A stretch of 64,000 bases of DNA, taken from NCBI GenBank assembly GCA_965645245.1, contig OZ287075.1, positions 1 through 64,000 on the forward strand, in the 5' to 3' direction. This document shows, piece after piece, positions 3,312-48,769 of this stretch. The DNA comes from Massalongia carnosa. Taxonomy: Eukaryota. Position 1 is the first letter of the stretch; each line of letters opens with the position of its first letter. The translations under genes were made by a program, and so were the position numbers. The notes under the pieces are model-generated. The model was not told the DNA's origin and did no database searches. It saw only the letters and a program-made list of their open reading frames with translations.

Positions 3312-6300
3312 TTATTCCACCTCTTGCACACCAAGCTTGGCTCGTAGTTCTTTGAACATGGTTGCTCCCAAGGGCTTGGTGAATATATCAGCTATCATCT
3401 CGTGTGTGGATACGTGACCAGTTGAAGCATAGCCATCGTTGATGACTTCGCGAAGGTGGTGGAGTTGGATGTCTATGTGTTTTGATCCGCTATGATGCTC
3501 GGGGTTTCTGATCAAGTCGAGGGTTCCCTGATTATCACCGTTCAGCTTGATCGGGAAGTTCATATGCTTGCCAAATCCCAATTCATTCATCCACCTTGTC
3601 ACCCATACGATATCCTTGCCTGCTTGGCACATGGATGAATATTCTGCCTCCATTGTTGACGTAACCACTGATCGTTGCTTCTTGCTTGCCCAAATCACTG
3701 CCCCATTGCCCAATAACATTGTATGCCCGTAGGTTGACTTGCGGTCATTGACGTCATCGCCGTATGCGGCATCCGCAAAGCTAATGAGATCACCGTTACG
3801 GTTATGGTCGTCTACGAGGGCTAGGTCGGCTGTCCCTTTGAGATATTTGAGGACTCGGTCAAGGGCTGTTCGGTGCCTCATGGCTGGATCATGCGTGTAC
3901 TGACTGAGTTTTCCAACTGGAAAGGCGAGGTCTGGCCTCGTGCTTACCATAGCGTACATGACACTGCCAATACGCTTCTGATATTCTAATTGATTGGTTC
4001 TGGGCTCGTCAGCCGTTGCAGGTGTAAGGCTTTCTTTCTATTGGAATTTGCCTAGATACCTGAATATTTGCGACCGAGGTTCTTTTGCCTCCTGCTTACT
4101 AATTTCCAGATTAGGCAATCATATGCTATATGCGAAAAGCTTCAGATTTCGGCACGACTTCGGCAAGTACGAGGAGGCAAAGGTATGCAGCAAAAATGCT
4201 ACATTTCGGAGGCAATTCAGCTGTTCATGATCACTGAGTGTCTCGGTGTCTCCGGTCAGCAATAAGGTGTATTTTGCCCAGCTGAAAAGGTTCAACGGAA
4301 GCAGGTTCATGCATTTGATATAGGCCGAGATGGAGGCCCTCAAGCAGTATAAAGAGACGATGATTCCTCATGTAATTTAGCTATTCAGTCGTTCAGAATT
4401 CAGTTCAGCAGATAGCTAAATTTGGAGTATCTTCACTGGAAATACGGAGTACCTGCATCACGTTTGCCAAGCACTTATCTTTGCCTATCCTTGATAGCCC
4501 TAGACCCTCTTCTCCTGCATCCCGCTGCCGTATGCCTGGTTGATTTTTTGTTCAACACTTTCCCGTCTAGTGGTGTTAGTACTGGATTGGCGTTATCCAT
4601 CTGGTAATCGCGAAGGAAGTTCTTGATGTAGTTGGATTGATCGAGGAAAACCCGTCTTCCTTCACGTCGAATGCGAATACCCAACACGTACTGTGCTGGC
4701 CCTAGGTCTTTCATTTTGTACTCACGATTTAATAGCTCTTTGTCATCTTTGATCGCTGCCTTGCTCTTTGAGAAAATTAGTAAATCATCTACGTACAACG
4801 CGATGATTACGTGCGAGGTTTGGTTGACAAAGACGCAATTATCGCCTGTGAGGGTCTTATAGCCAATAGAACGCAGGAATTTAGATATTCTTTTGTTCCA
4901 CTCTCGTCCAGATTGCTTCAATCCGTAAAGGCCCTTCCGTAGTCGTAATACGCAGTCTTCATAGCCTGGTGGTGGCGTGAGGCCTTCGGGCATCTCCATG
5001 TAAATAATTTCTTCTAGATCCGCTTTAAGATAGGCATTCGGAACATCCATTTGCTCGATTTCAAACCCGAAGTATGCTGCGAGCGACAAAAGCATCCGCA
5101 AAGATTCCTGACGGAGTGTGGGTGAAAAGGTCTACTCGTAATCTAGGCCGAATATTTGTGTATATCCTCGTGCAACTAGGCGGGCCTTGTAGCGGTCTAT
5201 GAAATTGTTGACCGTATATTTTATCTTGAATACCCATTTGGACGTCACGATATTTCTGCCATGCGGCCGCTTACAATACTCCCATGTGCCATTAGCAATG
5301 AGGGCACAAAGCTCCTCGTCTATTGCTATTAGCCATTTACGCCAGTCAATGCATTTGATGGCTTCTTTATAGGAGCGGGGTTCGGATAGCTTGGGGGTTT
5401 GATAAACTTGCTTGTGACCACTCTGGTCTAGGTTTGCGTCCATGTCTGCTTTCCGAGCTATATGCCCGTGTGCTTTATCGAAGCCGTACTTATCAAATGG
5501 CTTTCGCTCCCGCGTTGATCGACGAGTAGGCTTATTAGTAGAGGTTTGTATGGTAGAAGAAGAAGAATTGATGGTTGATGAAGATACGGAAGTGGAAGGG
5601 TTCGTAGGAGTGGAAGAGTTTCGATTATGATTTTGCGACCGGAATGTTGAACCATCTGGTCGCTGATAAGCATTAGGGGAGGAATCAGTGATAACTTGCT
5701 GATTTTCAGGATTTGATCCTGAATCCCCTCCTGAATTTTCGTCTCTAACCTGATTTTGAACACCCTCAGGCGCTCCCACTTGATCAGAATCAGGTTTATT
5801 TGTGTCATCCTCGTTATCAGTACTATTGTCGGCAGCATCATTAGTGACGCCGGACTGTACGAATAACTCGCGATCCTCATTTGGTTTTGCTCCTCCTAGA
5901 ATAATCCCGCCGGGTGTATTTTCTAGGAACTTAATTGAAGTATGCCATTCTACCTTGTTCGTTTTTGGATTATAAATGCGATATTGGTTTGAAGAGTGAT
6001 ATCCGACGAAAATTCCTTGCCAGGATACTTTATCCAGCTTGGATCGATTTTCCTTCGGGATATGAACGTGAACCAAGCAGCCAAAGGTGCGTAGATGGCT
6101 AATGTCCGGTTTTTGCTCCGTCCATTTTTCTTCGGGTGACTGGTTAACTTTGGCGGTAGGGAGGAGGTTTCTGAGATAGTTAGCAGTTATTGCTGCTTCT
6201 CCCCAGAAGGAATGAGGTAATTTCGCCCATACGAGCATGGACCTAATCATTTGAACGATTGTTCGGTTATATCGTTCCGCAACTCCATTCTGTTCTGGAG

Positions 6301-8409
6301 TATACGGTGTAGTGGGTTCAGCGCGAATGCCATCGGGTCGAATAAGTTCCATGAATTTCTTGTACTCCTTAGCATTATCGCATCGGAATTTGATTACTTG
6401 CTGATTCTTTTCTCTTTCAACGACATTCATCCATTCTTTGATAGCTCCATAAATGGTTCGTCGGTTTTTAAGGAGAATTAGCCAGGACTTCCGTGTAAAG
6501 TCATCAATCAATGAAATAAAGTACGAATGGCCTCCGAGGCTAGCCGTACGATAGGGGCCCCAGATATCCGTGTGAATCCTGGCCAATGGCCGGACTGTTT
6601 TCGAAAACGGCTCGTGACTGACCACTCGAGTTAACTTGGTAAAGTTGCAGATAGAACATGAAAGTTGTGTAACAGTTGGTGAAAAGGAAGTTATTCCAGA
6701 CGCATAGCGGTATAAATCCTGGAGTCGTTTTGGGCTGGGGTGACCCATTCGGGCGTGCCACAGTCTGTATTCACGCTCTTCTGGCCTTTCTTGACCTACA
6801 GGTGATACCGATTTTTCTCGCGTGCAATCTCTTGCTATTATTGTAGGCTTGTTCGACGATTTAGGATCTTCGGGGTTGGCTTCCTCGATATTTTCGCTGA
6901 TTTCCGCGAATGCCTGTAAGGCAACCTGAGAGGTCCGCAAGAAATACGTACGTCCTCTAAGAAAACCACTGGCCACTGAGGTACCCTTCCGCAGGATCTC
7001 CACACCTTTTCCATGAAACAAGACATTTAACCCCTTTTTGTTTAATGCCGAAATAGACAGTAGGTTTGCATCCAGTTGGGGTACGTATAAAACATCGGTC
7101 ATGCGAATGGCAACACCATCGATATCCACAGAAATATCACCCTTACCCTTGCTCCAAAGCCTCTGGCCATTAGCAATTCGAATTGGGGTGCGGTGGTATT
7201 CGAATTTCGTGAAGATATTTCGCATATAGGTCATATGACGTGAAGCACCAGAGTCTAGCATCCAGCCACTAGTTTTATCCTCTGCACCTTCACGGACTTC
7301 AAAAATTTCTTCTAATTTTTCAACTTTCTCATCAATAACCTCCTCTTTTATATCCACGGCCATCCACCCCTCATCCTCACTGGCACCATCGTCAAAGTCC
7401 TCTTCATTGGCCGGCCGGGCAGTGCCTTTGCTTCGGCCACTGAAGTTGGAAGAACTGGTATTGCTCGTGGAGGTAGGCCTAGTGGTACTCCGTGATTTCA
7501 ATTTGGGTACAGGTTTTGATGTTTCGGATTTGGACTTCGGTTTCCTCCGTTGCTCAGGATGGGTGCGTTCCCATTCCTGGCCTTCGTCGGTGTCATCAAG
7601 CCAGCTCCAGCAATAGATTCGGATATGTCCAAGTTTCCCGCAATGGTCGCACTTCTTTGGTGGCCCTTTACCCTTTTTTTGCATTCGCTCGATGGGCATC
7701 CTCGACAGAGTCATCCTTTTCGAATTTTAGTCGCTGCTCCGTCGCTTTCAAGGCCTCCTTAGTTGCTTCCAAGGTAAGCTCGGGTTCCCGTTCCAATAAA
7801 AGCTTTGTTGTATCAAATGCAGGGTCCTCCACGGCACTCATCAGGGCTATGGCCATCAACGCATCGTGAGGCTCAAACTCCGATTTTATGTCCGCAATCT
7901 GGACTCGTAAGGTCTCAAGGGCCCCTGCTATATCATCGATGGAGTCGCTGGATCCAGCCTTGTAGGTATAGAATCGCTTCAATAAATAGTTGATTCTTCC
8001 TCTGGCGTGGACTCCATGGACCTTCTTTAGAGCGTCCCAGGCGGCTTTGGATGTTGTTTTGTTTCGAAGGAGTCAATTGGCTTTTCTCACAGTTGGCCCG
8101 TATCCATTTCAATGCGTTGGTATCATCGTGGTCCCATTCGTCAAAGTCTTTTGGTCGGGTTACTGTATCTGGTTGAGGGGTTTTTCCTTCTACTAACTTG
8201 AGGACTCTCATAGATTTAAGCTGAATCCACATCTCTTCCGCCCAGGTTAAATAATTATCGGCACCTAGCTTGGGCTCTACCCTTATATCCCCTTTCCTTA
8301 CCGGTTTTGTATACTGCCCATCGGGGCCAGAAGATGAAGAGGAAGGAGGGGAAGGCCTGGTCATACTTGCTGGTGTATTAGGGTCTGTGGAGTCGCGTTG
8401 GTCCGCCAT
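3312..8409 (-). pseudogene. Copia A gag-pol (zinc knuckle, PR, IN, RT, RNase H)
   Basis: CDHCGKLGHIRIYC, WMLDSGAS, WHARMGH, QNGVAER, YVDD, FADAAY; frameshifts near 8070 and 7690, stop at 5132, solo LTR insertion. Confidence 0.93.
4039..4557. mobile_element. Solo LTR (519 bp) inside copia A RT
   Basis: TATTGGAA...TTCAACA termini; TSD CTTTC; removal restores PLDGKESLTPA. Confidence 0.88.
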
Positions 8410-9373
8410 CTCGTTATGTATAACCTCGAAACTAACACAAGAAAATCACTCGGCAGCACTATAGGCTAACCGGGCTCATAACCTGTTTAAAATAGGAGGG
8501 ATGGATGGAGAATGATGGACCCAATGCACAGAAAATAGGTGGCAGAGTGCCAGAAGTCTCTGGATAGTACAGAACTTCTATGAATGAAATAATTCAGATT
8601 ATTGCGACTGATCTCTAAGCTATGCGTAGGAGTGATGTTATATACATGTTGATCATAGAACATTCGAGATTCTACTCGAACGTCTATAGACCTGAATTTC
8701 TAAGCATCGAAGATACCAGAAATTCTCAGATGTAACTATTCCCATATCAGTAAAATACGCGAGGGCATTCGCATATTACGTCAGATATGATCTAGCTGGC
8801 TTGGCATTCGCAACATTGCCCTCTGACAGAATCAATCGAATAATGTCGTCGAGTCTGGCGTATTGTAATTTGGATGCCTCTTCTGGAATGTTGTCGTTGA
8901 CTGATGTTTGATTGGGATGAGACAGATGATGAATGCGTCGCCATCCTCCGTCATGTTTCGGGACCAAGCCGAGGGGGGAGGCCACAAATGGCTGACTCGG
9001 GGCGGCTATTCGTCTGACTCGGCCCTTCCTGAGGTCCTCTTGAAGCTTATTCTCGATCGTTTCCGGGTCCTCATTTCGCTGATGTCAGATTTTTTTCGAT
9101 CCGAAGGATGTCTGTGGGGCCTTCGTATCCGATTTGTACTCCGAAACGAAGGATCATGGGCAGATGGACTCGGAGGGGGCCCGGATACTCTTGAAGTAGG
9201 GTTGCCCATGCGGACGGTACGAGGGGAGAGGGGCTGTCTTTCAAACGCTGACGAGATGCGTCTACGAGTTGAAACGAAGGGATTGTATTTGGTCTGATTG
9301 GTGCAGGTAAGCAGGGATGGGACGTCATGAATTCAGCAATTGAAGCTATTCTACTGCCTCCTGCACCAACCCC

Positions 9374-10456
9374 CTATTTCTTCGTTGGGCATGTCTTCTG
9401 GCCATGCCCAGCCGCGCCGCACGATTTGCATTTGTGCTGTCGGTAGCACGACGGCCAGGTGCAGGTGCCGCTGTTGTACTTGTCGCAGATTTCCCCCGCT
9501 GCTTTCTCGGCCCTCTCGGCCCTGTCTCCTCTCGGGGTCGGTCGTCGGGACGGCGGGGATCGTGAGCGGCGACGGCGTAGGACTGTGAGGGGGGTGCAGA
9601 ATCGAGCTTGGAATTCGTCGGGCATTTTCCATTGGGATGCGTCGGATGGCTGAGACGCGATGATGTGGGTGTGGATTTCGATGGCGAGTGGGAGGACTGC
9701 TTCCTGCCACTCGTACACCTTGGCCAGCGTGAGGATTTTTCCGTGGAATGCCGACATGGTGGCGTGAAGCTGTTGACTCGATTTCCCGAAAAGACTGACC
9801 ATGATCGAGGTGTAGTTGACGAAGCTCTCGGTCCAGACGTCATGAACTGTCTTTCCGAAATCTTTGTAGGTCCCGGATGCCTTTCTTAACCTCAAGGCGC
9901 CGTCTTCAATGCCGATGCGGTCTTGATCCTTGTATGACTCGTATTGCATGCCGTGCATGTGTCGGAGGCGGGAGAGGTTGATAGCTTTGAATTTATTAGA
10001 AAAGATCTTGATGATCTCGTCCTGTGGTAGGCCCGCGAAACGGGGTGCTATGCCTCTTACTTCGAGAGGGATCTCACCTAGGTCCTCGTTGTCATCGCCG
10101 ACGACACGACTCGGCTTGCCAGCAGGAATGATGGCCGCTATTCGGGCGTCAGATTCTCGGCGCATGCAGTCGATTTCTAGCTGCATTTTTTCCACCTCCT
10201 TCTCGGCGACCAATGCCTTGGACTCGGCAATTCTAGCCTCAGCCTCGGCCGCCTTCGCTTCCGCCTCGGCTTTCTTCTTTTGTAGGGCGAAGATTTGATT
10301 GGATTGGGCCTGCGTCAATCCGACAATCTCCTGGGGTCGGGGACTATGTCGTCCATCAAGGTGCTTTGGGAACGGGTGTTCGTCATTGGGAGGTAGGGGC
10401 ACCGAGACAACGTGAGGTCGACGACGAGTCAGTGAGATTGGAAAAGCAGCAAGCAC
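9374..10456 (-). CDS. gag: Gag-like ORF1 of Ngaro #1
   Basis: Coiled-coil N-terminal half; C-terminal CDKYNSGTC...C...H and CKSC...H...C fingers; start codon uncertain. Confidence 0.85.
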   Translation of the reverse strand: MLAAFPISLTRRRPHVVSVPLPPNDEHPFPKHLDGRHSPRPQEIVGLTQAQSNQIFALQKKKAEAEAKAAEAEARIAESKALVAEKEVEKMQLEIDCMRRESDARIAAIIPAGKPSRVVGDDNEDLGEIPLEVRGIAPRFAGLPQDEIIKIFSNKFKAINLSRLRHMHGMQYESYKDQDRIGIEDGALRLRKASGTYKDFGKTVHDVWTESFVNYTSIMVSLFGKSSQQLHATMSAFHGKILTLAKVYEWQEAVLPLAIEIHTHIIASQPSDASQWKMPDEFQARFCTPLTVLRRRRSRSPPSRRPTPRGDRAERAEKAAGEICDKYNSGTCTWPSCYRQHKCKSCGAAGHGQKTCPTKK

Positions 10457-10514
10457 TGACAGCGAGGTAGGGGCACCGAGACAACGTGGGGTCGACGATG
10501 AGTCAGTGAGATGG
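10390..10514. repeat. Two ~50-bp direct repeats at the 5' end of Ngaro #1
   Basis: gaggtaggggcaccgagacaacgtg.ggtcgacga.gagtcagtgagat at ~10390 and ~10464. Confidence 0.85.
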
Positions 10515-11811
10515 ATGAGGCCGAGTGAGAAGAAGTGGATGAGGAAAGAATTTTCAGAGGGTGATTCTTAATTTACTTTGACTCAGGGGCCTCACGTGAC
10601 ATAGAACCTTCTCATATATTGAGATCTGTCTACATGGCTATTATATACTGCCTAGCACGCCAAGACTCACAGGGCTGCGCTACACCCGCAAAGGGGTTGG
10701 AGGATAATTTAACAATTATAGATAAAACATTTATTTCGTTGACGTCGAACTACCATAAAGAGTATCACAAATTCATATGCTATCTTGTCAGGCGATTTGA
10801 GGTCACATGACCCACGAACCCCTATGAGATATCCCTCAGTTAGCTAGCCTAGACCTCCCATAGATCAATACACACCACTCCTTTTCACCCATAATCCACA
10901 TTAGCCCATACAGCTTGATACTTATGAGCCCGGTAAGCATAGAAGCTTCAAATTCCTGCTCATTGATCTAGTTGAATAAAACCCTCTTCCCAAATCGATC
11001 CAACAAAACGATCAAAATGGAGGAGACCAACAAAGCAACGATGATCGCCCTAACTCCCAAGAATTATCATCTATGGATTAGGGAATTACAAGGAATATCC
11101 GAGAAAGCGAAGGTATGGCAATATGTGGACCCCAATGGTTCAAAACCGGAGCCCGAAGAGGGAGAATATCCGGAAGTTTCACAATATCAAGTCCCTATTC
11201 AAGCACAGCCAGCAGGTGGAATTGCTTACCCCAATATAGAAGGTGGAGTTGTAATAGCCACCAAATCGGCTGAGAAATACGGCGATTTATCGGCTGAGCA
11301 AAAGGAGGACTATAAAATAGAGATATCAGCCTATAAGATGAAGGAAAAACAGGTGGAGAAGGTCGCCCAAGGACTTAGAATAGTGGACAATGCATTAAAG
11401 AGCTCCACACGAGCATACATCCCCCCCAATAAGATGGCTTCATCGGTTAGGGAAATAGTGAAAATTCTGGCTGCAAGATATAAGCGGTCAGATGACCAAG
11501 TCAAAGAGCAATTGCATGAGCAATTTCTAGCCCTAAAAACCCCGCCCATTAAAGATAAAATAGAGGCATGGTGTAAGGAAGCTGTCGTCGATTCTAATCA
11601 ACCGCTATTAAACTAAAATTTATCTACAAAAGAAGAAAAGAATTATTGTGCGCGACTCGCTAGAAATATCTGCACCGAGTGTCGCGCTAGCCTCGTGTGC
11701 TCCCGTGATCCCCACTTCCATCTCAGCCTTATGTCAGGCTAGGACCCTGACACTATCCCCCCCTTCTATTGGCGAGGTCTCCGAAGCGCTAAGTGGCAGG
11801 CGCCCTGCCAG

Positions 11812-39632: not shown

Positions 39633-39870
39633 ATCTTCATCTGACTCTCTTCATCTGACTCTCTTCATCTGACTCTCTTCATCTGACTCTCTTCATCTGA
39701 CTCTCTTCATCTGACTCTCTTCATCTGACTCTCTTCATCTGACTCTCTTCATCTGACTCTCTTCATCTGACTCTCTTCATCTGACTCTCTTCATCTGACT
39801 CTCTTCATCTGACTCTCTTCATCTGACTCTCTTCATCTGACTCTCTTCATCTGACTCTCTTCATCTGACT
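39633..39870. repeat. 14-bp tandem repeat (CTCTTCATCTGACT) x ~17
   Basis: Perfect array ending 5 bp before the gag ATG. Confidence 0.97.
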
Positions 39871-39875
39871 TCATC

Positions 39876-40811
39876 ATGTCTCTTCCTGACATCAACAGTT
39901 CCACAGAGAAGCCTCACCTTCTAGAGAACTCGGAACACTACTCAGCATGGGCTAGTTACACCAGAGGTATTCTGCTGAAGAATAACTGTGACACAGCCAT
40001 TCTGGAAACCCAACTAGAGATCTCATTGGACTCCATCAGAGAGAGCCTCATCGTATCAGGGTTTACTCTGGCCAGTCTTACTACAAGCATCCTCGTCAAA
40101 GAACTTCGGGATGATAAGAACAGACAGAAAACCGAGATGACCAAGGCTATTGGAATCATCCATGGACTGGTTGCACCATGTCACTACAACCTCATCAATA
40201 ACAAGACCGCTGCCGAGATGTGGGCCATTCTGAAGAATAGATTCCAGGACGTGGCACCAATGAGCATCACGGATGTCATCTTGAGGGTTAGTACGAAAAA
40301 GATGAGAGACTTCGACACAGTCAGTCAATACTGTTCAGAGTATGACGGTGCCTTCATTCAGATCAAGGGCATGTTGATCGAAGAGGTCAAGGTGAACGTC
40401 GACTCCATAGAGTTTGTACTGCAGGGAATGCTGCTTGGTAACTGCACAGACAAGTATGACCCGCTCACTGCACAACTCCGCAGGGACTGGACGCACGACA
40501 CCACAAACCTTTCGGAAACAACAAAAATCCTCATAGTCTATGCACGAAACCTAACTGTCAAGGCTTTTCACACTGGCGCTTCCAACAGAGGTAGAGCACC
40601 TATCGGAAGTTGCACCGTTCCAGAGTGTGTAAATAGGAACAGAACACGACATTGGCCAGATGAGTGTTTCCAGAAATTCCCCCATCTAAAACGGGCGAGA
40701 GGAGACACGGCTGAATCAGGGAGGGTCAAGAGACAAAAGAACTCCAAGCCAGAAGTCACCACGTCAACTCCAGACACCACAGTCACTACAATTCCCACAG
40801 TGAGCAGTTGA
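39876..40811 (+). CDS. gag: Copia E Gag
   Basis: 311-aa ORF with TAAEMWAILK and C-x4-C-x7-H-x4-C; pol follows in frame after TGA. Confidence 0.88.
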   Translation: MSLPDINSSTEKPHLLENSEHYSAWASYTRGILLKNNCDTAILETQLEISLDSIRESLIVSGFTLASLTTSILVKELRDDKNRQKTEMTKAIGIIHGLVAPCHYNLINNKTAAEMWAILKNRFQDVAPMSITDVILRVSTKKMRDFDTVSQYCSEYDGAFIQIKGMLIEEVKVNVDSIEFVLQGMLLGNCTDKYDPLTAQLRRDWTHDTTNLSETTKILIVYARNLTVKAFHTGASNRGRAPIGSCTVPECVNRNRTRHWPDECFQKFPHLKRARGDTAESGRVKRQKNSKPEVTTSTPDTTVTTIPTVSS

Positions 40812-42699
40812 CTCACAGTGGTCATGACTACCACTCTACAGAAGGTCATGACCATTAACCATCTCAACAGAGACACCTGGCTACTAGACAGCGCAGCGGA
40901 CATGCACGTATGCAACCACAGGCCGTCGTTCATCAATTACATAACACGCTCCACAGGTCTGGCAGGATCAACATCAGATGGCACGTCTCCAGGGAGGGGA
41001 ATGATCCGGAAAACGTTGGCACTACAGGACGACTCACCCTCGTCAGTGTTAATACTGAACAACGCTCTTTTCATTCCAAAGTCTCCAGTGAACCTCGTCA
41101 GTCTGGCACTACTCAACCAAAACAACATCTACTATGACAATTTTAACTGGACCCTATTCAACGGGATCAGTCAGAACATCATAGGCTATGTGCCAAGAGT
41201 CAATACAAACTATGTACTAAAGACCTTGGACGCCCCAGCGTGGCTACACATCTTATGCAGACAGATGAGAGCACCTTTCAGTGGCCGAACACATCAGTCT
41301 ACCACACGTCAGCCATAACAGACCTGTCAACATGGCATGCGCGCCTTGGTCATTTGAACCTGATCATCTGCCGAGCTTTTCTGAAAAGACTCGATGTGTC
41401 GTACTCAGACAACGTGAACAAAGATTGGTACTGTTCATCCTGTGAACTCGGAAAGGCCACTAAGATATATAACCGGACACCTCAGGAGAGAGCAATAGGC
41501 ATCTTTCAAAAGGTTCATTCCGATCTAGTAGGACCCATCAAACCAGCAGGACTTCTTGAAGAACAGTACTTCTTTACCTTCACCTGCGATGCCAGCAGAT
41601 ACACTCATGAGTATACAGGCATCAAGAAGAGCGAATGGTTTGATCATCTGTTGACATACTACAGTCTAGCTCAGAACAAGACAGGAAAGAGCAAAGCCAA
41701 TAAACATCTTCGAACTGATTTCGGCACAGAACTTCGAAGTCTGAAATCGGATGATTGGTTCCTGAAAGAAGGGATAACGTTTGAACCCTCCACACCGTAT
41801 TCACAGGAACAAAACGGTGTGTCTGAACGAACAGGCAGAACTATCATGGACATGACTAGATGTACCATCATTGCAGGAGGCATTCCGGACTACCTATGGA
41901 CAGAGGTGGTTTTAGCTATGGTTCACACAAAAAACGTCAGACCTACAAATGCTGTTAACCGATTAGACCACACTAGTTCGTGTCAATCTCGTTATATTGC
42001 TACTAAGTATGTTTGGGCTATTGCTCACAGCCCCCGGCCTCGAGAGGGGGACTCGATAAGGGCCTTGCTGTCTACTAATGTAAGACCCTCTCGCAGGCCT
42101 TGGGCTGTGAACAGACTCCCTCTATCTAAGCGACAGAAGAACTGGAGTGGGTGGGTGGGAAAGAAAACGTTGCAAACAGTGCTATCAAAATGCTATGCTT
42201 TTTGATTGTCTTGAGATGTGAGATGATGAGGGATACCGTCTGGGACCTCCTCTTTATATATCTTCTTCCTATTCTCCTTGTCCTACTCTACCATCCCAGT
42301 ATGCCCCATCAACGCGGCCCATAGCAAGGCATACACAAATCCGAAACCTAACTGTCGTCCGAAGGATCGATGCGGTGCTAAGATCTCTATGCCGTGCTGA
42401 GACATCCTTATGGTGCTGAGACATCTATGCCGTCCGAGAGATCCATGCGGTGCCGAAATCAAAGCGGGAGCTGTCTCGATTAACGACGCACTAGCTCTCA
42501 GCATAGCCGAACTAGCTAGTTCGTGTCAATCTCGTTATATTGCTACTAAGTATGTTTGGGCTATTGCTCACAGCCCCCGGCCTCGAGAGGGGGACTCGAT
42601 AAGGGCCTTGCTGTCTACTAATGTAAGACCCTCTCGCAGGCCTTGGGCTGTGAACAGACTCCCAATCCCCAACATGGAACGACCCGCTTGCGGTGTTGT

Positions 42700-43755
42700 T
42701 CAGGACCTAGTGACTGGATTGTGAGGTTCCGTGGGTAATGTTTGAAGGCGTTTTGAGGCGTTAAGAAGGTAAGTGGGGTGGGTTTGTATGTAAAGCTTGT
42801 ATGCGTCTGACTTCCATCTTCCTAGCATCTGAATCTCGTCTTCGGTGAGTCCTGCCCGTCGCGCTGTTGTTGCCGCACCTCTTCTGAACGAGTGGCCAGA
42901 GAAATTTCCTATATAGCCCAAGTTCCTTAAGGTGGATTTCATCGCTGTTGTAATGTAGTCTCGAGTGAAGGACTGACCGTTTTTAAAGAGTGGTGCGGCC
43001 GGAGAACTTGGGAATCGCCTATATAAATTTGTAAGAGAAGCTAGTGCACAAGCAACATCGTTGGTAGCCGCAATTGTCAGTGTTATGCCTCGGCGAAAGG
43101 GATCGGTTTTGGAGACTGGTAGAGAGAGCTGTAGGTGATCTGCTTCGAACCTAATAGATTTTCTGGTGAGGTGCCATTGATCAAAGCTTGGGTCTAGTAC
43201 ATCTTGCGTTGTGTAAGTAAATTCTCCGGCTCGTAAGAAGCCTGCAAACGCTAAGCAGTACGCCGCATGTAAATTTGCGCCTTTCTCTTTCGTTTGATCA
43301 AGACGACTTAGCAATTTGATTAAGATCTCTCTAGTAATTGGTAACCTTTCACGTTTCTCGGCTTCACCGTTCTTTCGCTTTATGCCAGTAAGGATGCGAT
43401 CTAACACCGGGTGATGAAATACGTCGAGATTACCGAGGCCCTTATCTATCTGGCATGATCTTATGCCCGTCAAGTAGCTCTTAATAGTTTTTGGTTGCAG
43501 GCGTCGTTCACCCAACGCTGCGATCCACGAAGACAGCGTCCGGATGTTGGCTGGAAATGGTGGCGCGTTGAGGTTTACCCTACAGTAAAGAACGTATCCC
43601 TTTCTTGCCGTTGTGTATAAAGATCTTGTCTTAGTGGCCAGGCCCCACCAGAGGTATCGTGCTGCGATTTCGTCTAGAGGTACCTCACTGTACCAAGATG
43701 GGGGTGGATCGCGTCCTATATTGCTGAGGGTAGAGCCTGAAACTGAGGGATTTTG
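42700..43755 (-). CDS. Tyrosine recombinase; open frame with no upstream ATG
   Basis: FLRAGE, SKTD, GHSFRRGAA, GRWKSDAYKLY; frame open up to the TGA at 43756-43758. Confidence 0.95.
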   Translation of the reverse strand, partial: QNPSVSGSTLSNIGRDPPPSWYSEVPLDEIAARYLWWGLATKTRSLYTTARKGYVLYCRVNLNAPPFPANIRTLSSWIAALGERRLQPKTIKSYLTGIRSCQIDKGLGNLDVFHHPVLDRILTGIKRKNGEAEKRERLPITREILIKLLSRLDQTKEKGANLHAAYCLAFAGFLRAGEFTYTTQDVLDPSFDQWHLTRKSIRFEADHLQLSLPVSKTDPFRRGITLTIAATNDVACALASLTNLYRRFPSSPAAPLFKNGQSFTRDYITTAMKSTLRNLGYIGNFSGHSFRRGAATTARRAGLTEDEIQMLGRWKSDAYKLYIQTHPTYLLNASKRLQTLPTEPHNPVTRS

Positions 43756-45332
43756 TCAGCCAGTTTCTTCAAAAGTCCTCTAGACAAGAGATCAGCAATA
43801 TAATTTTCTTTGGATGATATCCATCGCGCTTCTATCTGGATATCATGTAATGCAGCTAGCATTGTAATTGCCCGCAGGGCATGCATTGCTTGGCCTCGTA
43901 TAGAGGTTTTATTCACTCCTTTCGTGACAGCGTAGCTATCACAATAGAGGATTAAATGACTACCCTTGCATATAGGTAGCCACTTTTTCATAGCTTGAAG
44001 AATTGCTGTCATTTCTTTGACGTTGATATGCTTTGCCCTAAGGCGCGTAGTAAAGCGTGTGCTAAAAGCCTGCCGGGCTGCTTGTATATTATGCAAATTT
44101 TGATCCTCGCTGAGGATAAAGCCGCCCATACCATATGAGCCGGACGCATCTGTCCATATTCTCATAGTATGTCTAGTACGGTTGAGCAGATGTATGCCAT
44201 TCCATTTAGGTAGGAAATGATGCCACCATAGAAGATCAGCCCTCATGTCCTTGTTAAGATGGATTAGTTTAGAGGTTACGCTTGCCGTAGCATTGAAAAG
44301 ACGGCGTAGAAAGGCTCTTCCTGGTTTTACCACTCTGGCTGCAAAGCATAAGAATCCTAGAAGAGAGTCGAGTTCCTTCCTGGGTATGGCTTTTTTATTC
44401 AAAGCTGCCGATACTAGGGTCTTTGCTTTTAGTAACTTTTCGGAAGGCAAGCGTGCTTCCATGAGCGCGGTATCGATTTCAATGCCGAGGAAATCGCAAG
44501 TCGTTCCAGTTCTGTTCTTTTCGAGCTTGATTTTCATGCCAAGATCTTTACAAATGTTGTGGAAAACTTGATCAAACTTTTCAGCATCTGGTCCGGTGCT
44601 GACTATTATTAAAAAATCATCCAAGTAATGAATAGCGTCTTTCCAACCACAGTTGTACAATATCCAGTTGATACCCTTCGCGAACAGATCAAAAAGGAAC
44701 GGCGACGTTCTCAGCCCAAAGGGTAAGTATTTATCCATCCAAAAGGAATCCTGCCACTTGAAACCTAGTAACCACCAATCGCTTTTTGCTACTGGTATGT
44801 GGCGAAAAGCGTCCGCAAAGTCTCTTTTAATAAGAATACACCCTGGCCCGCGTTGCTCAATCAACCTAATGGCTTCGTCGAAGCTGGTATATTCCAGGGA
44901 GCCCCAGTCTTCCGGTATGTGGTCGTTGACTGAGCTACTCTCCGGATACGATAGATGATGGATTCGCCGCCAACCACCGTTAGCCTTTGGTACAAGGCCT
45001 AATGGGGAACATATAAAGCAAGAAGGAATGTTGTTGACTTTCTCCAACCGATTACTAGCTATTTGTTCTTCGAGGTCATTGGTAAGAACTTCCGGTGCCT
45101 CATTTGCAGAGGCAAGATTATCGCTAATAATGAGTTGATGTGGTCCTGTATAACCAACTTTGGCACCGTAGGTGATGATATCGATAATTGTTTGTGTGTA
45201 AGTGCGATCCGGGTGATTGGCCAAATGTTTCTCCCAGCCTTCTTTCTTCAATGGGCCCGGTGGGATCTTTGTTAGATTGTCCGTCAAGGTGTATGGAAAG
45301 GACTCCGCGATGGATAAGAATGGGGCGGTTAG
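43716..45332 (-). CDS. pol: RT/RNase H of Ngaro #2
   Basis: SPLGLVPK, PFGLRTSP, HYLDDF, WTDAS, NYIADLLSR; in frame with gag after TGA. Confidence 0.95.
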   Translation of the reverse strand, partial: LTAPFLSIAESFPYTLTDNLTKIPPGPLKKEGWEKHLANHPDRTYTQTIIDIITYGAKVGYTGPHQLIISDNLASANEAPEVLTNDLEEQIASNRLEKVNNIPSCFICSPLGLVPKANGGWRRIHHLSYPESSSVNDHIPEDWGSLEYTSFDEAIRLIEQRGPGCILIKRDFADAFRHIPVAKSDWWLLGFKWQDSFWMDKYLPFGLRTSPFLFDLFAKGINWILYNCGWKDAIHYLDDFLIIVSTGPDAEKFDQVFHNICKDLGMKIKLEKNRTGTTCDFLGIEIDTALMEARLPSEKLLKAKTLVSAALNKKAIPRKELDSLLGFLCFAARVVKPGRAFLRRLFNATASVTSKLIHLNKDMRADLLWWHHFLPKWNGIHLLNRTRHTMRIWTDASGSYGMGGFILSEDQNLHNIQAARQAFSTRFTTRLRAKHINVKEMTAILQAMKKWLPICKGSHLILYCDSYAVTKGVNKTSIRGQAMHALRAITMLAALHDIQIEARWISSKENYIADLLSRGLLKKLADKIPQFQALPSAI

Positions 45333-46487
45333 TCATTGCCTTGATGGGAGAGGCATCGAATTTGGGTTAGAGGGTTGATTTTTTCCATTTGTACAGTCCA
45401 TCGCCCGATGTTGCTTTCCACATTTCTCACACACATGTTGGAATCTACAATATACGGGACAGTCTTTGCCATAGTTGTATTTCTTACAGATAATCTTTTC
45501 GCCTGAGGTTTTGAAAGCCGTAGAATTATCGTCCGGTTTTGCAAAGTAAGCGGACGGTTTCCGCACAAGATGCCTTTCCAAGGAATGGTCCATTTCTTTC
45601 CATCCATCCGGGTTGTCAATCCCGCGAAAGGCTCGAGATTTGTGGAAATTCAAATGAAAGATGCGAACCGAGTCCCAGGTGTAGAAGGCGTATAATGATA
45701 GAAGATGGTCCTGATAAGCCATGAAGGCTCTCATCAGGTTTATCTGGAGACCGGGGTGTGCAAAGTGTAGTAGTATCATCCAATATACCCCGAGACATCG
45801 TATCAAATGAACTATCCCTTTGATATCTTTTAAGGAGCCATCTTCTTCTCTCGTGGCGATTTCCAGACCTTCTCCGAGTTTGACGTATCTAGAGTTGGTT
45901 TGAACTCCGTCGATGTCGGTACATAGCTTGGTAATGTTGATTGGGTCAAACGTATTCTCGGAGATTTGCTTTATCCATATGGGCTTGATAGTGGGATATT
46001 CGTTCATAAGAGAAACAAAACGAGGATCCATACCTTCTGTATACAATGAGTTTGGTCGATGCGGTGGAAATGATGTCGGAAATAATAGGGAAGGCTGTTG
46101 AGCTGAGGCTACTGGCCCAGGGACCACGTCTCGGGCACGTGCTTGTTGGGTTTCGATATCCCGCCTAAGACTTACTCTTTCTCTTTCCTCGGCTTCCCTG
46201 CGGGACATTTCGCGTTGTGCTCTAAGTTCAATAATGTCATCAGGGGTGCGAGAACGGGTTTCCGGTATAACAGGCCCTTGTGAGGAGGAATTAAACGCTG
46301 AAGATGGAAGAGGAGAAGGTTGAGGATGGCTTTGAAGGGTTGCCGTGCTGTCTTGTGAGTCGGGTACTTCGACGTCTGGGTTGGAGTTGGCTAGATTTGC
46401 CCTAGCTCTAGTTCTAGTACGGGCTAGAGTGCTGCCTTGTGTGCGGGAGGTAGGCTTGGTGATTCTGTTGGAGATGCGGGTGGCCAT
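45333..46487 (-). CDS. gag: Gag-like ORF1 of Ngaro #2
   Basis: Likely start MATRISN; C-terminal CKKYNYGKDC..C..H and CEKC..H...C fingers. Confidence 0.88.
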   Translation of the reverse strand: MATRISNRITKPTSRTQGSTLARTRTRARANLANSNPDVEVPDSQDSTATLQSHPQPSPLPSSAFNSSSQGPVIPETRSRTPDDIIELRAQREMSRREAEERERVSLRRDIETQQARARDVVPGPVASAQQPSLLFPTSFPPHRPNSLYTEGMDPRFVSLMNEYPTIKPIWIKQISENTFDPINITKLCTDIDGVQTNSRYVKLGEGLEIATREEDGSLKDIKGIVHLIRCLGVYWMILLHFAHPGLQINLMRAFMAYQDHLLSLYAFYTWDSVRIFHLNFHKSRAFRGIDNPDGWKEMDHSLERHLVRKPSAYFAKPDDNSTAFKTSGEKIICKKYNYGKDCPVYCRFQHVCEKCGKQHRAMDCTNGKNQPSNPNSMPLPSRQ

Positions 46488-47056
46488 TTTTGGAGGAGAG
46501 GGATTTGAATAGAGTAAATTTAAGTGTAGTGGTTGTATAAATTTGAATTGGGTGAAAAGAAAACGTTGCAAACAGTGCTATCAAAATGCTATGCTTTTTG
46601 ATTGTCTTGAGATGTGAGATGATGAGGGATACCGTCTGGGACCTCCTCTTTATATATCTTCTTCCTATTCTCCTTGTCCTACTCTACCATCCCAGTATGC
46701 CCCATCAACGCGGCCCATAGCAAGGCATACACAAATCCGAAACCTAACTGTCGTCCGAAGGATCGATGCGGTGCTAAGATCTCTATGCCGTGCTGAGACA
46801 TCCTTATGGTGCTGAGACATCTATGCCGTCCGAGAGATCCATGCGGTGCCGAAATCAAAGCGGGAGCTGTCTCGATTAACGACGCACTAGCTCTCAGCAT
46901 AGCCGAACTAGTTAAAAACTAAATGCTTGCCCTCGATTTTCTTTTCAGTATCGCGGACAGCACAAGTAGAGACCCTAATCATTTTCGTTTCAGTGTCACC
47001 GTTCCCATTAACAACCTCCTTGTTTGTAAGCCCTTGATCGCGATTTCGATCAAGGA

Positions 47057-48703
47057 CTAGGCTTTTCCCGCCTCAGATTCCGCTCCCGAATCTGTTTCTA
47101 CTGTTCTCATGGTGCTCAAATTCTTGTCCCTGTATTGAGGACAAATGGTATCGTTTCCTCGATGTCCTGATCCCCTGCATGCCCAGCATCGGCGTTGACG
47201 GGAGAGGGACTCGCGCTCGTCGTCCTTCAGCTTCTTTGGGTTTGGGTCTGGATCATACCAGGTGCCTACCCAACCGGCCGGTTTGAATATCGTTGGCATC
47301 AGTTTCGCATTCGGCCGATCATCAGATTTCTTGGAGCTGGTTTGATTGATGGAGGATGAGGCGGACTTTCCGCCGGAGGACTGGGTTGAGGATTGTCCGC
47401 TGGAGAAGTTGCTTCGTTGGCTGGAATTCTTCGTTGCGGCTGGTTTATCGGGACGAGGAAAGTGGTGCGCCACATCTTTGCGGCGGTCTTCGATTCTTCG
47501 TGCTTCGTCAAGTAAAGGGCGGAAATCAGTAAAGACTGAACCCATAAGAGAGTTGGAGATGCTAGGCTTTAACGTCACGAGAAACTTCTCAATTCGCTCG
47601 TCAACGGGAGTTTTGGCTTTCTGCCATAGCTTGAAGATTCGGTGATAATACTCGCTGACGCTTTCGCCCCCTTTCATGGTGACGGTGAGGAGTTCTTTCT
47701 TGGCGTCGCGACTCTGGAGGTGAATGCCCATATAGTGCTCTATCTCTTCGAATAAAGCGTCGGCCGATAGTGAGTCTCCCATATCCACTATCCAAGAGCG
47801 CATAGCCCCGAAGATCGGCGCTTCCATTTGAGACAGCGCGTAACCGACCTTTTCGTTCTCATCGGCGTAGAGGGGTGCGTCTGTCTTCAGTTTATTGCGG
47901 ACGGAGTACGCCCAAGGACTATACTCCTCCGAGTCCTCACCTTTAAGTGGCTTGCTAGGGTTTATACCACGGGGTCGCCAATTCTGGGGGTTGGTGTTGG
48001 TGCTTCGGGTAGTAACGGTATCTTCTCGTTGATGACGTGGTGTTTCCCGTGTTTCCGCTAACTGGCGGACCAGGGAGTCTATGTCTTTCTGTAATCTCTC
48101 TTTTGCTATAGTCATTGCCTTTAATTCGATATCTCTATGCGATAGTTCTTCTTGCGCGAGAAGGGCCTCTCGTTCGGCATCGTCTTTTTCCGTGATGAGA
48201 CGTTCATGTACTTGTTTGTAACGTCTGTTGATCTTTTTGACCTCGCCAAGCTTCTCCAGGTCGCCCTGCAAGGAGATGTATTTGTTGAATAGGGTCTTGT
48301 CGTATTCGAGCGCTCTCGCGAGGAAGTCATACCATCGGGGTCCTTCTTTCTCGTCTCGCAAGATGCTCTGCAATTCCTTCAAATTGTGTGCTGCAACGTG
48401 GGACGGATGTTCCGCGGCTTCCTTCTCGTAATATGGATGATCGGAGACATCGATCTTCTGAAAAAACTTCTTTTCTTTTTCACGTCCTGCTCTTGGGGTT
48501 TTTTCCCACGTCCCCTCCGTGGTTTCTTTAATCTGTTCGTTCTGAAGTAATTCGGAGTCTTCAAACGTTCCCGGCATGCTGCTATCCGAGCGAGACGAAT
48601 GATGGGAGACGGAACGAGCACGGGTGTTAAATGCTGGGCCGGTCTGGGCCTCTGCGGGAGGGGCTACGGCCTTTCTCGCCGTCATGGGCGTTTTTGAGCT
48701 CAT
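47057..48703 (-). CDS. gag: Gypsy Gag, intact, 548 aa
   Basis: Coiled coil, retrotransposon-gag domain and zinc knuckle. Confidence 0.92.
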   Translation of the reverse strand: MSSKTPMTARKAVAPPAEAQTGPAFNTRARSVSHHSSRSDSSMPGTFEDSELLQNEQIKETTEGTWEKTPRAGREKEKKFFQKIDVSDHPYYEKEAAEHPSHVAAHNLKELQSILRDEKEGPRWYDFLARALEYDKTLFNKYISLQGDLEKLGEVKKINRRYKQVHERLITEKDDAEREALLAQEELSHRDIELKAMTIAKERLQKDIDSLVRQLAETRETPRHQREDTVTTRSTNTNPQNWRPRGINPSKPLKGEDSEEYSPWAYSVRNKLKTDAPLYADENEKVGYALSQMEAPIFGAMRSWIVDMGDSLSADALFEEIEHYMGIHLQSRDAKKELLTVTMKGGESVSEYYHRIFKLWQKAKTPVDERIEKFLVTLKPSISNSLMGSVFTDFRPLLDEARRIEDRRKDVAHHFPRPDKPAATKNSSQRSNFSSGQSSTQSSGGKSASSSINQTSSKKSDDRPNAKLMPTIFKPAGWVGTWYDPDPNPKKLKDDERESLSRQRRCWACRGSGHRGNDTICPQYRDKNLSTMRTVETDSGAESEAGKA

Positions 48704-48769
48704 GACTGGATTCTGAAAATGGGATAGCTTGATTCCCTGATTCTAAAAGTTCTGGAAGTTCTGGAATTT

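Follow-up and report, generated by a model that had tools for sequence, protein, structure and literature searches.

The env messenger RNA (mRNA) of avian sarcoma/leukosis virus uses a 5′ splice site that lies in gag past the AUG, and env thereby borrows the gag start codon and six codons. Foamy virus Pol is likewise made from a spliced subgenomic mRNA, without a Gag part, and in Ty1/Copia elements, as in Drosophila copia, splicing drops pol to yield a Gag-only mRNA. Ty1/Copia elements of Arabidopsis are also reported to undergo splicing (PMC5580714). For the fungal Ngaro elements, the available portions of the literature give the tyrosine recombinase (YR) open reading frame (ORF) as frameshifted relative to pol and overlapping it (Muszewska et al. 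2013, PMC3783388; PMC13465315), and within those portions the question of how YR is expressed in tyrosine-recombinase retrotransposons is left open. Here we examine two Ngaro-type elements in a stretch of 64,000 nucleotides (nt) from Massalongia carnosa (GenBank assembly GCA_965645245.1, contig OZ287075.1, positions 1 to 64,000 of the forward strand), which we refer to as the window. We consider it likely that alternative splicing fuses an N-terminal module of Gag to YR in these elements, where we infer the joining of donor to acceptor from their conservation.

Expression of this kind would resemble that of avian sarcoma/leukosis virus env, in that a downstream gene takes the gag start codon via splicing; in the virus, however, six Gag codons are contributed to an envelope product, whereas here about 150-210 residues including a coiled coil would be contributed to an integration enzyme. 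As with foamy virus Pol, an enzyme would come from its own spliced mRNA rather than from Gag-Pol readthrough or frameshifting, but Ngaro would splice the recombinase alone, not the reverse transcriptase (RT), and would add the Gag N terminus. As in Ty1/Copia elements, alternative splicing of the full-length RNA would determine the proportions in which a compact genome yields its products, but in Ngaro it would drop the Gag core together with pol to reach a third gene. The principle of such splicing is thus known from retroviruses and Copia elements, and its use in Ngaro appears new as far as the available portions of the literature go. No natural intron in Ngaro or DIRS elements is described in those portions of PMC7192593, PMC8547959, PMC3783388, PMC13465315 and PMC6681497, though Goodwin and Poulter 2004 or Poulter and Butler 2015 may hold one, and the strings "intron" and "splic" each occur 0 times in the available text of PMC3783388. 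Compared with Ngaro elements as described in the available parts of PMC3783388 and PMC13465315, which give no mechanism of YR expression, a conserved intron and a Gag-N::YR fusion are what we propose here.

Results

An earlier note on this DNA had named the two elements Ngaro #1 and Ngaro #2; we call them W1 and W2, respectively, and read their motif positions on the minus strand, on which all features given for the two elements lie. W2 is a complete, young Ngaro-type element (46911-41973). Its gag ORF (45333-46487) runs from an ATG at 46487-46485 to a TGA at 45335-45333 and encodes a protein 99% identical to database protein P0121, and its pol region, comprising RT and RNase H (43716-45332), continues the gag frame past that single TGA. 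In both elements gag and pol share a frame with one stop between them (in W2 TGA at 45333-45335, then CTA; in W1 TAG at 9374-9376), so that Gag-Pol is probably made via stop-codon readthrough. The W2 YR frame (42700-43755) has no ATG before its catalytic domain and ends at a TGA (42702-42700).

We propose that the unspliced transcript would encode Gag, and probably also Gag-Pol by readthrough, and that the YR frame, which is −1 relative to pol and lacks a start codon of its own, would be reached by alternative splicing. The N-terminal region of Gag consists of a basic low-complexity stretch and then a coiled coil, and the 5′ splice site would lie where this region ends. In W2 the donor AAG/GTATGG would pair with a 3′ splice site where the YR frame begins, made up of GCTGAC and a CAG at either 43745-43743 or 43739-43737. 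The predicted intron of about 2.29 kilobases would hold the Gag core and the whole of pol, and the predicted product of about 496-498 amino acids would consist of Gag residues 1-151 fused to YR. We favor splicing because, in dozens of diverged Ngaro families, no splice-like signals other than this donor and acceptor are conserved, and because the two are held both at synonymous sites and through amino-acid replacements.

The individual signals in the window were found as the earlier note had described them. In W2 the candidate 5′ splice site GTATGG (46028-46033, phase 1) follows a proposed exon 1 whose coding part (46034-46487) comprises Gag residues 1-151 and the first base of codon 152; the exon ends with G46034, which is codon position 1 in the gag frame. 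At the YR end, the branch-site motif GCTGAC (43755-43760) encodes Ala-Asp in pol, and the TGA within it opens the YR frame. Two CAGs follow in W2, both in phase 1: one at nine nucleotides from the branch motif (N9; 43743-43745, exon 2 starting at 43742), whose position is conserved in relatives, and one at fifteen (N15; 43737-43739, exon 2 starting at 43736). The N15 CAG was the acceptor chosen in the earlier note, and the 43742 that it offered as an alternative corresponds to the N9 CAG. In W1 the signals at the YR end span 1174-1197, with the branch motif GCTAAC (1197-1192) and a phase-1 CAG (1176-1174) at N15. Thus, the claim that both branch motifs are followed by CAG at 15 nt is correct in its coordinates for both elements, as are the positions and phase 1 of the donors AAG/GTATGG (46034/46033) and TAG/GTGAGA (10078/10077), and the phase of both acceptors (43736 is codon position 2 of the W2 YR frame). 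We likewise confirmed that no ATG lies ahead of the YR N-terminal domain in either element and that the two gag donors are at near-homologous positions, each 12 codons upstream of the aromatic residue in the first core motif. Because donor and acceptor are both phase 1, the donor-acceptor joins of W1 and W2 would be in frame.

The agreement of W1 and W2 alone proves nothing, because GCTRAC and CAG double as homologous pol codons (Ala-Asp/Asn and Gln, respectively). We considered that the motifs might reflect only protein conservation and chance, with YR made from its own transcript by way of an internal promoter and a non-AUG or downstream start. Such an explanation draws on two features of these elements, namely that GCTRAC and CAG are codons of the conserved pol peptide I-A-N/D-L-A-P-Q-L and that donor-like hexamers are frequent, with 7 GT[AG]NG sites within W2 gag. 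Counts from related elements, given below, show that the pattern goes beyond chance.

Relatives were obtained by scanning metagenome contigs with a YR alignment, which gave 79 loci with 36-56% YR identity from the best 80 of 569 confirmed matches; gag and pol lie upstream of YR in many of these loci. Two of the 79 were set aside because their contigs contain no stop upstream of YR, and the remaining 77, together with W1 and W2, formed 54 clusters at 90% nucleotide identity. The YR frame opens at a stop within a CTRAY motif in 43 of the 54 clusters (CTAAC in 21, CTGAC in 16, CTAAT in 5 and CTGAT in 1). An in-frame pol CAG, which is phase 1 in the YR frame, follows CTRAY at N9 in 36 of these 43 clusters, and an N15 CAG is the sole one in 6, including W1; W2 has both CAGs, and W1 and L055 have the N15 CAG alone. 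In two clusters among the 43 (L003 and L067) the YR frame opens at the GCTGAY of an upstream pol motif, ADxxSR, with a CAG at N15. The remaining 11 clusters fall into three groups: those in which the junction is truncated or rearranged, the L006 group, which has the motif plus an extra stop, and L039, L070 and L076, which have a variant arrangement with the CAG still in phase 1. We also note that in L003, L004, L019 and L067 the usual branch motif is gone, with the GCTGAY of ADxxSR and an N15 CAG present instead; the acceptor appears to have shifted in these four with phase 1 retained.

To compare synonymous sites around the acceptor, we used the pol motif ADALSR to align 40 of 41 cluster representatives, leaving one aside; 13 clusters offered no member in which the pol frame stays open over the junction. 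In the branch motif, T is the last base of the Ala/Thr codon in 35 of 35 cases (GCT in 25, ACT in 10), compared to a background of 21.5% of 1611 codons and to control Ala columns with GCT in 16/40 and 6/34. The acceptor Gln codon is CAG in 32 of 32 cases, compared to a background of 43.8% of 386. In contrast, the Pro, Leu, Ser and Arg codons that flank the branch and acceptor motifs vary freely, which implies that neighbouring synonymous sites are saturated. Since the third base of the Ala/Thr codon and the CAG of the Gln codon are fixed and the flanking codons are free, the constraint at the acceptor acts on the RNA. The constraint matches, at the level of sequence, a putative fungal branch site and, after a brief run rich in pyrimidines, a 3′ splice site. 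Protein conservation and chance would not be expected to fix synonymous positions at which four or two codons are possible and to leave their flanks variable.

The donor shows conservation of the same sort. We tallied it in 19 clusters that belong to one large superfamily with the gag core motif LFPGVER. At 26-28 codons before LFPGVER, the linker codon is GGT in 16 clusters and AGT in 3, such that GT is present in 19 of 19; the codon that follows is ACG in 9, ATG in 8, ACC in 1 and ACA in 1, and the base after that is T in all 19. The full phase-1 sequence N/GTAYGT (NGT, then A[CT]G-T) occurs in 17 of the 19 clusters. For comparison, the background share of GGT is 15.9% (126 Gly codons) and that of ACG is 16.4% (116 Thr codons); in a control Gly column, 3 of 18 Gly codons are GGT. 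The donor bases are also kept through amino-acid replacements: GT through changes from Gly to Ser, A-Y-G through Met/Thr, and the final T through Tyr/Phe/Ser/Leu. Retention of GT across the Gly-to-Ser changes argues against protein conservation as its source. The check on synonymous-site conservation suggested in the earlier note thus came out in favor of the signals, with an invariant T and CAG at the acceptor and an invariant GT in the donor clusters.

The donors of W1 and W2 are not at the GTAYGT site of this tally. A second phase-1 site, N/GTGAGA, is found about 13-14 codons downstream of the GTAYGT site in about half of the clusters, and it is to this second site that the W1 and W2 donors correspond by position. 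Every relative examined carries a phase-1 N/GT within the gag linker, 12 codons ahead of the first core motif. The linker donors are G/GTATGG in W2 and G/GTGAGA in W1, C/GTACGT in L005 and G/GTAGGT in L039; candidates are weaker in L001 (G/GTACTA) and in L008 and L070 (G/GTAATG, 12 codons before the aromatic residue as in W1 and W2), and the best candidates in L069 and L079 are G/GTATC.

Scans for further signals of these kinds, made without regard to the proposed sites, covered pol in 15 intact representatives (551 populated columns, 3 offsets) and gag in 7 full-length representatives (430 columns). In pol no GT[AG]NG column was present in at least 60% of sequences, the conserved GTs being solely those forced by an invariant Val or by Trp-Trp, and the sole conserved CTRAY was that at the pol C terminus (13/15). 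In gag the sole conserved GT[AG]NG was the phase-1 linker column, present in 7/7. Judged by sequence conservation, then, there is one conserved putative donor and one conserved putative branch site and acceptor per element, in the same orientation and with matching phases, and these sense-strand signals are the ones expected of a spliced subgenomic mRNA. As the scans reveal no other conserved motif of these kinds in either gene, and as synonymous positions are held at both ends, we regard protein conservation and chance as an extremely unlikely source of the signals.

The relation of YR to pol could also point to ribosomal recoding, in which a −1 frameshift or like event at the end of pol yields a Gag-Pol-YR polyprotein and the splice-like motifs are by-products. 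Among loci that show both YR and pol, nearly all indeed have YR in the −1 frame and overlapping the end of pol (the two share a frame in L006/L007/L010 and L038). However, a canonical slippery heptamer (X XXY YYZ) in the pol frame near the overlap was found in 4 of 30 representatives, and in neither W1 nor W2. Moreover, the −1 frame is shut just upstream by the conserved stop (the TRA of CTRAY), which in W2 leaves about 40 nt without a slippery site, and recoding would leave unexplained both the fixed GCT/ACT and CAG codons and the conserved GTAYGT in gag. We consider recoding very unlikely. As a separate matter, we rejected a small frame-shifting intron at the end of pol: the 100 nt that precede the branch motif in W1 and W2 contain no GT sites other than poor ones, and pol has no conserved donor-like column.

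One database protein has the composition that Gag-N::YR splicing would produce. P0018 (513 amino acids; sources NCBI and Logan) is a Gag-N::YR fusion of a related family, in which residues 32-110 match W2 Gag 78-150 at 38% identity (pairwise E 6e-07) and residues 138-487 align to YR 16-348 (51% identity, E 1e-130). The Gag homology of P0018 ends 2 residues ahead of the W2 donor codon. A search with P0018 returned 93 proteins, and its N-terminal part was covered by none of the others. Its longer matches P0145, P0147 and P0165 were rejected as further fusions, since their N termini are unrelated. One of these, P0147, is a coral YR homologue of 568 amino acids with a long N-terminal extension, the first 35 residues of which we take to resemble a SAP-type DNA-binding motif.

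We also placed on W2 the contigs of four public runs (X2, X4, X5 and X6, out of 6 found, none of them listed as RNA), for which the run type (RNA or DNA) is unrecorded. None of these contigs joins 46034 to 43742 or 43736, although contigs lose rare forms. In run X4, one contig skips a GT..AG stretch of 107 nt (45927-46033; depth 1024 vs. about 1e5, side 29, both 3), and this joint begins exactly at the W2 donor named in the earlier note. It shifts the gag frame, giving Gag residues 1-151 and 12 out-of-frame codons, then a stop. The X4 joint shows that the W2 donor is in use in at least one public data set, with a partner other than the YR acceptor. The coiled-coil part of exon 1 was also assessed for self-association of two copies, for which the score was close to zero and spoke neither for nor against it.

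The X4 joint bears on an explanation in which both splice signals are genuine yet serve different partners. In that case the gag donor would be joined to nearby gag acceptors, giving unproductive or regulatory transcripts (truncated Gag-N, or a signal for silencing by the host), and the YR acceptor would be joined to some other donor, for instance in the leader, with YR starting at a non-AUG or internal codon. That the sole observed joint of the donor ends 107 nt downstream with the frame shifted fits this explanation, as does the lack of any gag-to-YR fusion among 93 matches to an exon-1 profile. Yet neither gag (7 representatives) nor pol (15) contains a second conserved donor, and with a donor in the leader, 22 of 30 representatives would have no start codon for YR. 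Furthermore, all families examined have both donor and acceptor in phase 1, including those in which the sites have changed position; this match would be needless unless the two are joined. P0018, moreover, unites exactly Gag-N and YR. Thus, we think it unlikely that the two signals serve other partners.

Several observations nevertheless weigh against the splicing of Gag-N to YR. The one joint from the W2 donor ends inside gag and not at YR, and P0018 is the sole homologue longer than 400 amino acids among the 120 listed of 1484 YR homologues; it could itself stem from a genomic deletion derivative or a gene model rather than from an mRNA. The exon-1 peptide profile had its 93 matches among 1.84 billion representatives, and none is longer than 496 amino acids; the 20 of them that were examined are Gag or Gag fragments (fusions 0/20). 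Similarly, a search with W2 Gag residues 1-152 returned Gag itself alone (1 match, 407 candidates). The coiled-coil region of W2 Gag contains a perfect GTAAGT in phase 0 (46175-46170), a potential rival donor whose joining to the YR acceptor would put the product out of frame, and donor candidates are weak in some clades (GTACTA, GTAATG, GTATCC). An ATG does lie upstream of the YR N-terminal landmark in 8 of 30 representatives. Finally, the cluster representatives are related to each other, so that binomial figures drawn from the cluster counts overstate independence.

The remaining features of W2 bear on its class. Its split direct repeats are in the order A1 ... B1-A2-B2: repeat A1 (46556-46911; the 5′ split direct repeat, which includes TATATAAA) is 356 nt long and identical to A2 at 42160-42515, and the 3′ repeats (41973-42663) consist of B1 (42663-42516), A2 (42515-42160) and B2 (42120-41973), with the two 148-nt B copies identical. 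In pol, the Pfam domains RVT_1 (2.9e-14) and RT_RNaseH (1.4e-07) are both in one ORF (window 45332-43719); the Pfam scan of W2 pol found no integrase, protease or methyltransferase family, and since the YR frame begins within the end of pol there is no space for a further domain. W2 YR has 1484 homologues at E<=0.001, several of which are labelled integrase by their source, and contains both of the conserved blocks SKTDPFR and GHSFRRGAA, so that a tyrosine recombinase takes the place of a DDE integrase; its Pfam Phage_integrase score is 20.4 bits, under the cut-off of 27.1. The gene order gag, RT/RNase H, YR, the A1 ... B1-A2-B2 repeats, and the lack of protease, integrase and methyltransferase are like those of fungal Ngaro elements in the available descriptions (PMC3783388, PMC13465315). 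The lack of a methyltransferase sets Ngaro apart from DIRS-like and PAT-like elements. W1 and W2 are Ngaro-type tyrosine-recombinase retrotransposons of the DIRS order.

We note one difference between the window and the public runs in YR: position 43442 is A in runs X2, X4 and X6 and T in the window, a change of Lys to Met, and Met at this residue occurs in several relatives. The surroundings of W2 are a nested transposon landscape adjoining the telomere, with Copia and Gypsy frames beside the element at 39855-42205 (plus strand) and 47057-48742 (minus strand).

W1 is a decayed relative, its YR protein being 35% identical to that of W2. Its gag frame (9374-10567) holds the donor described above, and the ATG (10386-10384) is in a different frame. 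The C-terminal part of pol is at 1108-2268, the remainder being split off by a nested Copia element at about 3312-8445. The YR frame (296-1192) is closed by a stop at 298-296, with homology running on to the telomere repeat; positions 1-174 of the window are 29 tandem CCCTAA copies, that is, the chromosome end, and the 3′ end of W1, with the decayed YR, adjoins them. The Copia element nested in W1 pol (3312-8445, minus strand) has gag, protease, integrase and RT frames. W1 is a dead relic, given that its gag ATG is out of frame, a Copia element lies inside its pol, its YR contains a stop and its 3′ end is at the telomere repeat. For this reason, a spliced fusion in W1 would apply to its ancestor and not to the present copy.

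Discussion

The earlier note had inferred from W1 and W2 that an intron joins the Gag N terminus to YR, and this reading is supported, if indirectly, by the conserved, phase-matched signals, the fusion protein P0018 and the use of the W2 donor. No gag-to-YR joint was found in the contigs of the four runs, a result that carries no weight as to its absence, given the loss of rare forms from contigs. If the Gag N-terminal module is indeed shared between Gag and YR, it may bring YR to Gag assemblies or to the nucleus, the earlier note having suggested that it possibly loads the recombinase into particles, and the splicing ratio may set the amount of YR.

We can extend this view, tentatively and with more doubt than confidence, to all fungal Ngaro elements. 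One conserved alternative intron would put YR on the Gag N-terminal module as an address label, for Gag assemblies with their complementary DNA or for the nucleus, in place of the Gag-Pol fusion of retroviruses, and the efficiency of splicing would determine how much Gag is made relative to YR. The spliced RNA would retain the two terminal repeat sets and so could itself serve as a template for new DNA, seeding short Gag-N::YR elements, of which P0018 is possibly one. Among the 79 metagenome loci, which were searched for processed Gag-N::YR copies, a gag match was adjacent to YR in none.

If Gag-N::YR splicing is correct, the conserved intron provides the start codon that YR is without, and it explains why the YR frame opens at the TRA within CTRAY. 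Annotation pipelines that call YR start-less or truncated could then model it correctly, and the donor and acceptor would supply a precise junction for RNA-seq surveys of fungal transposon activity. Fungal Ngaro elements would, in that case, be the first of the DIRS order with a retrovirus-like spliced subgenomic mRNA.

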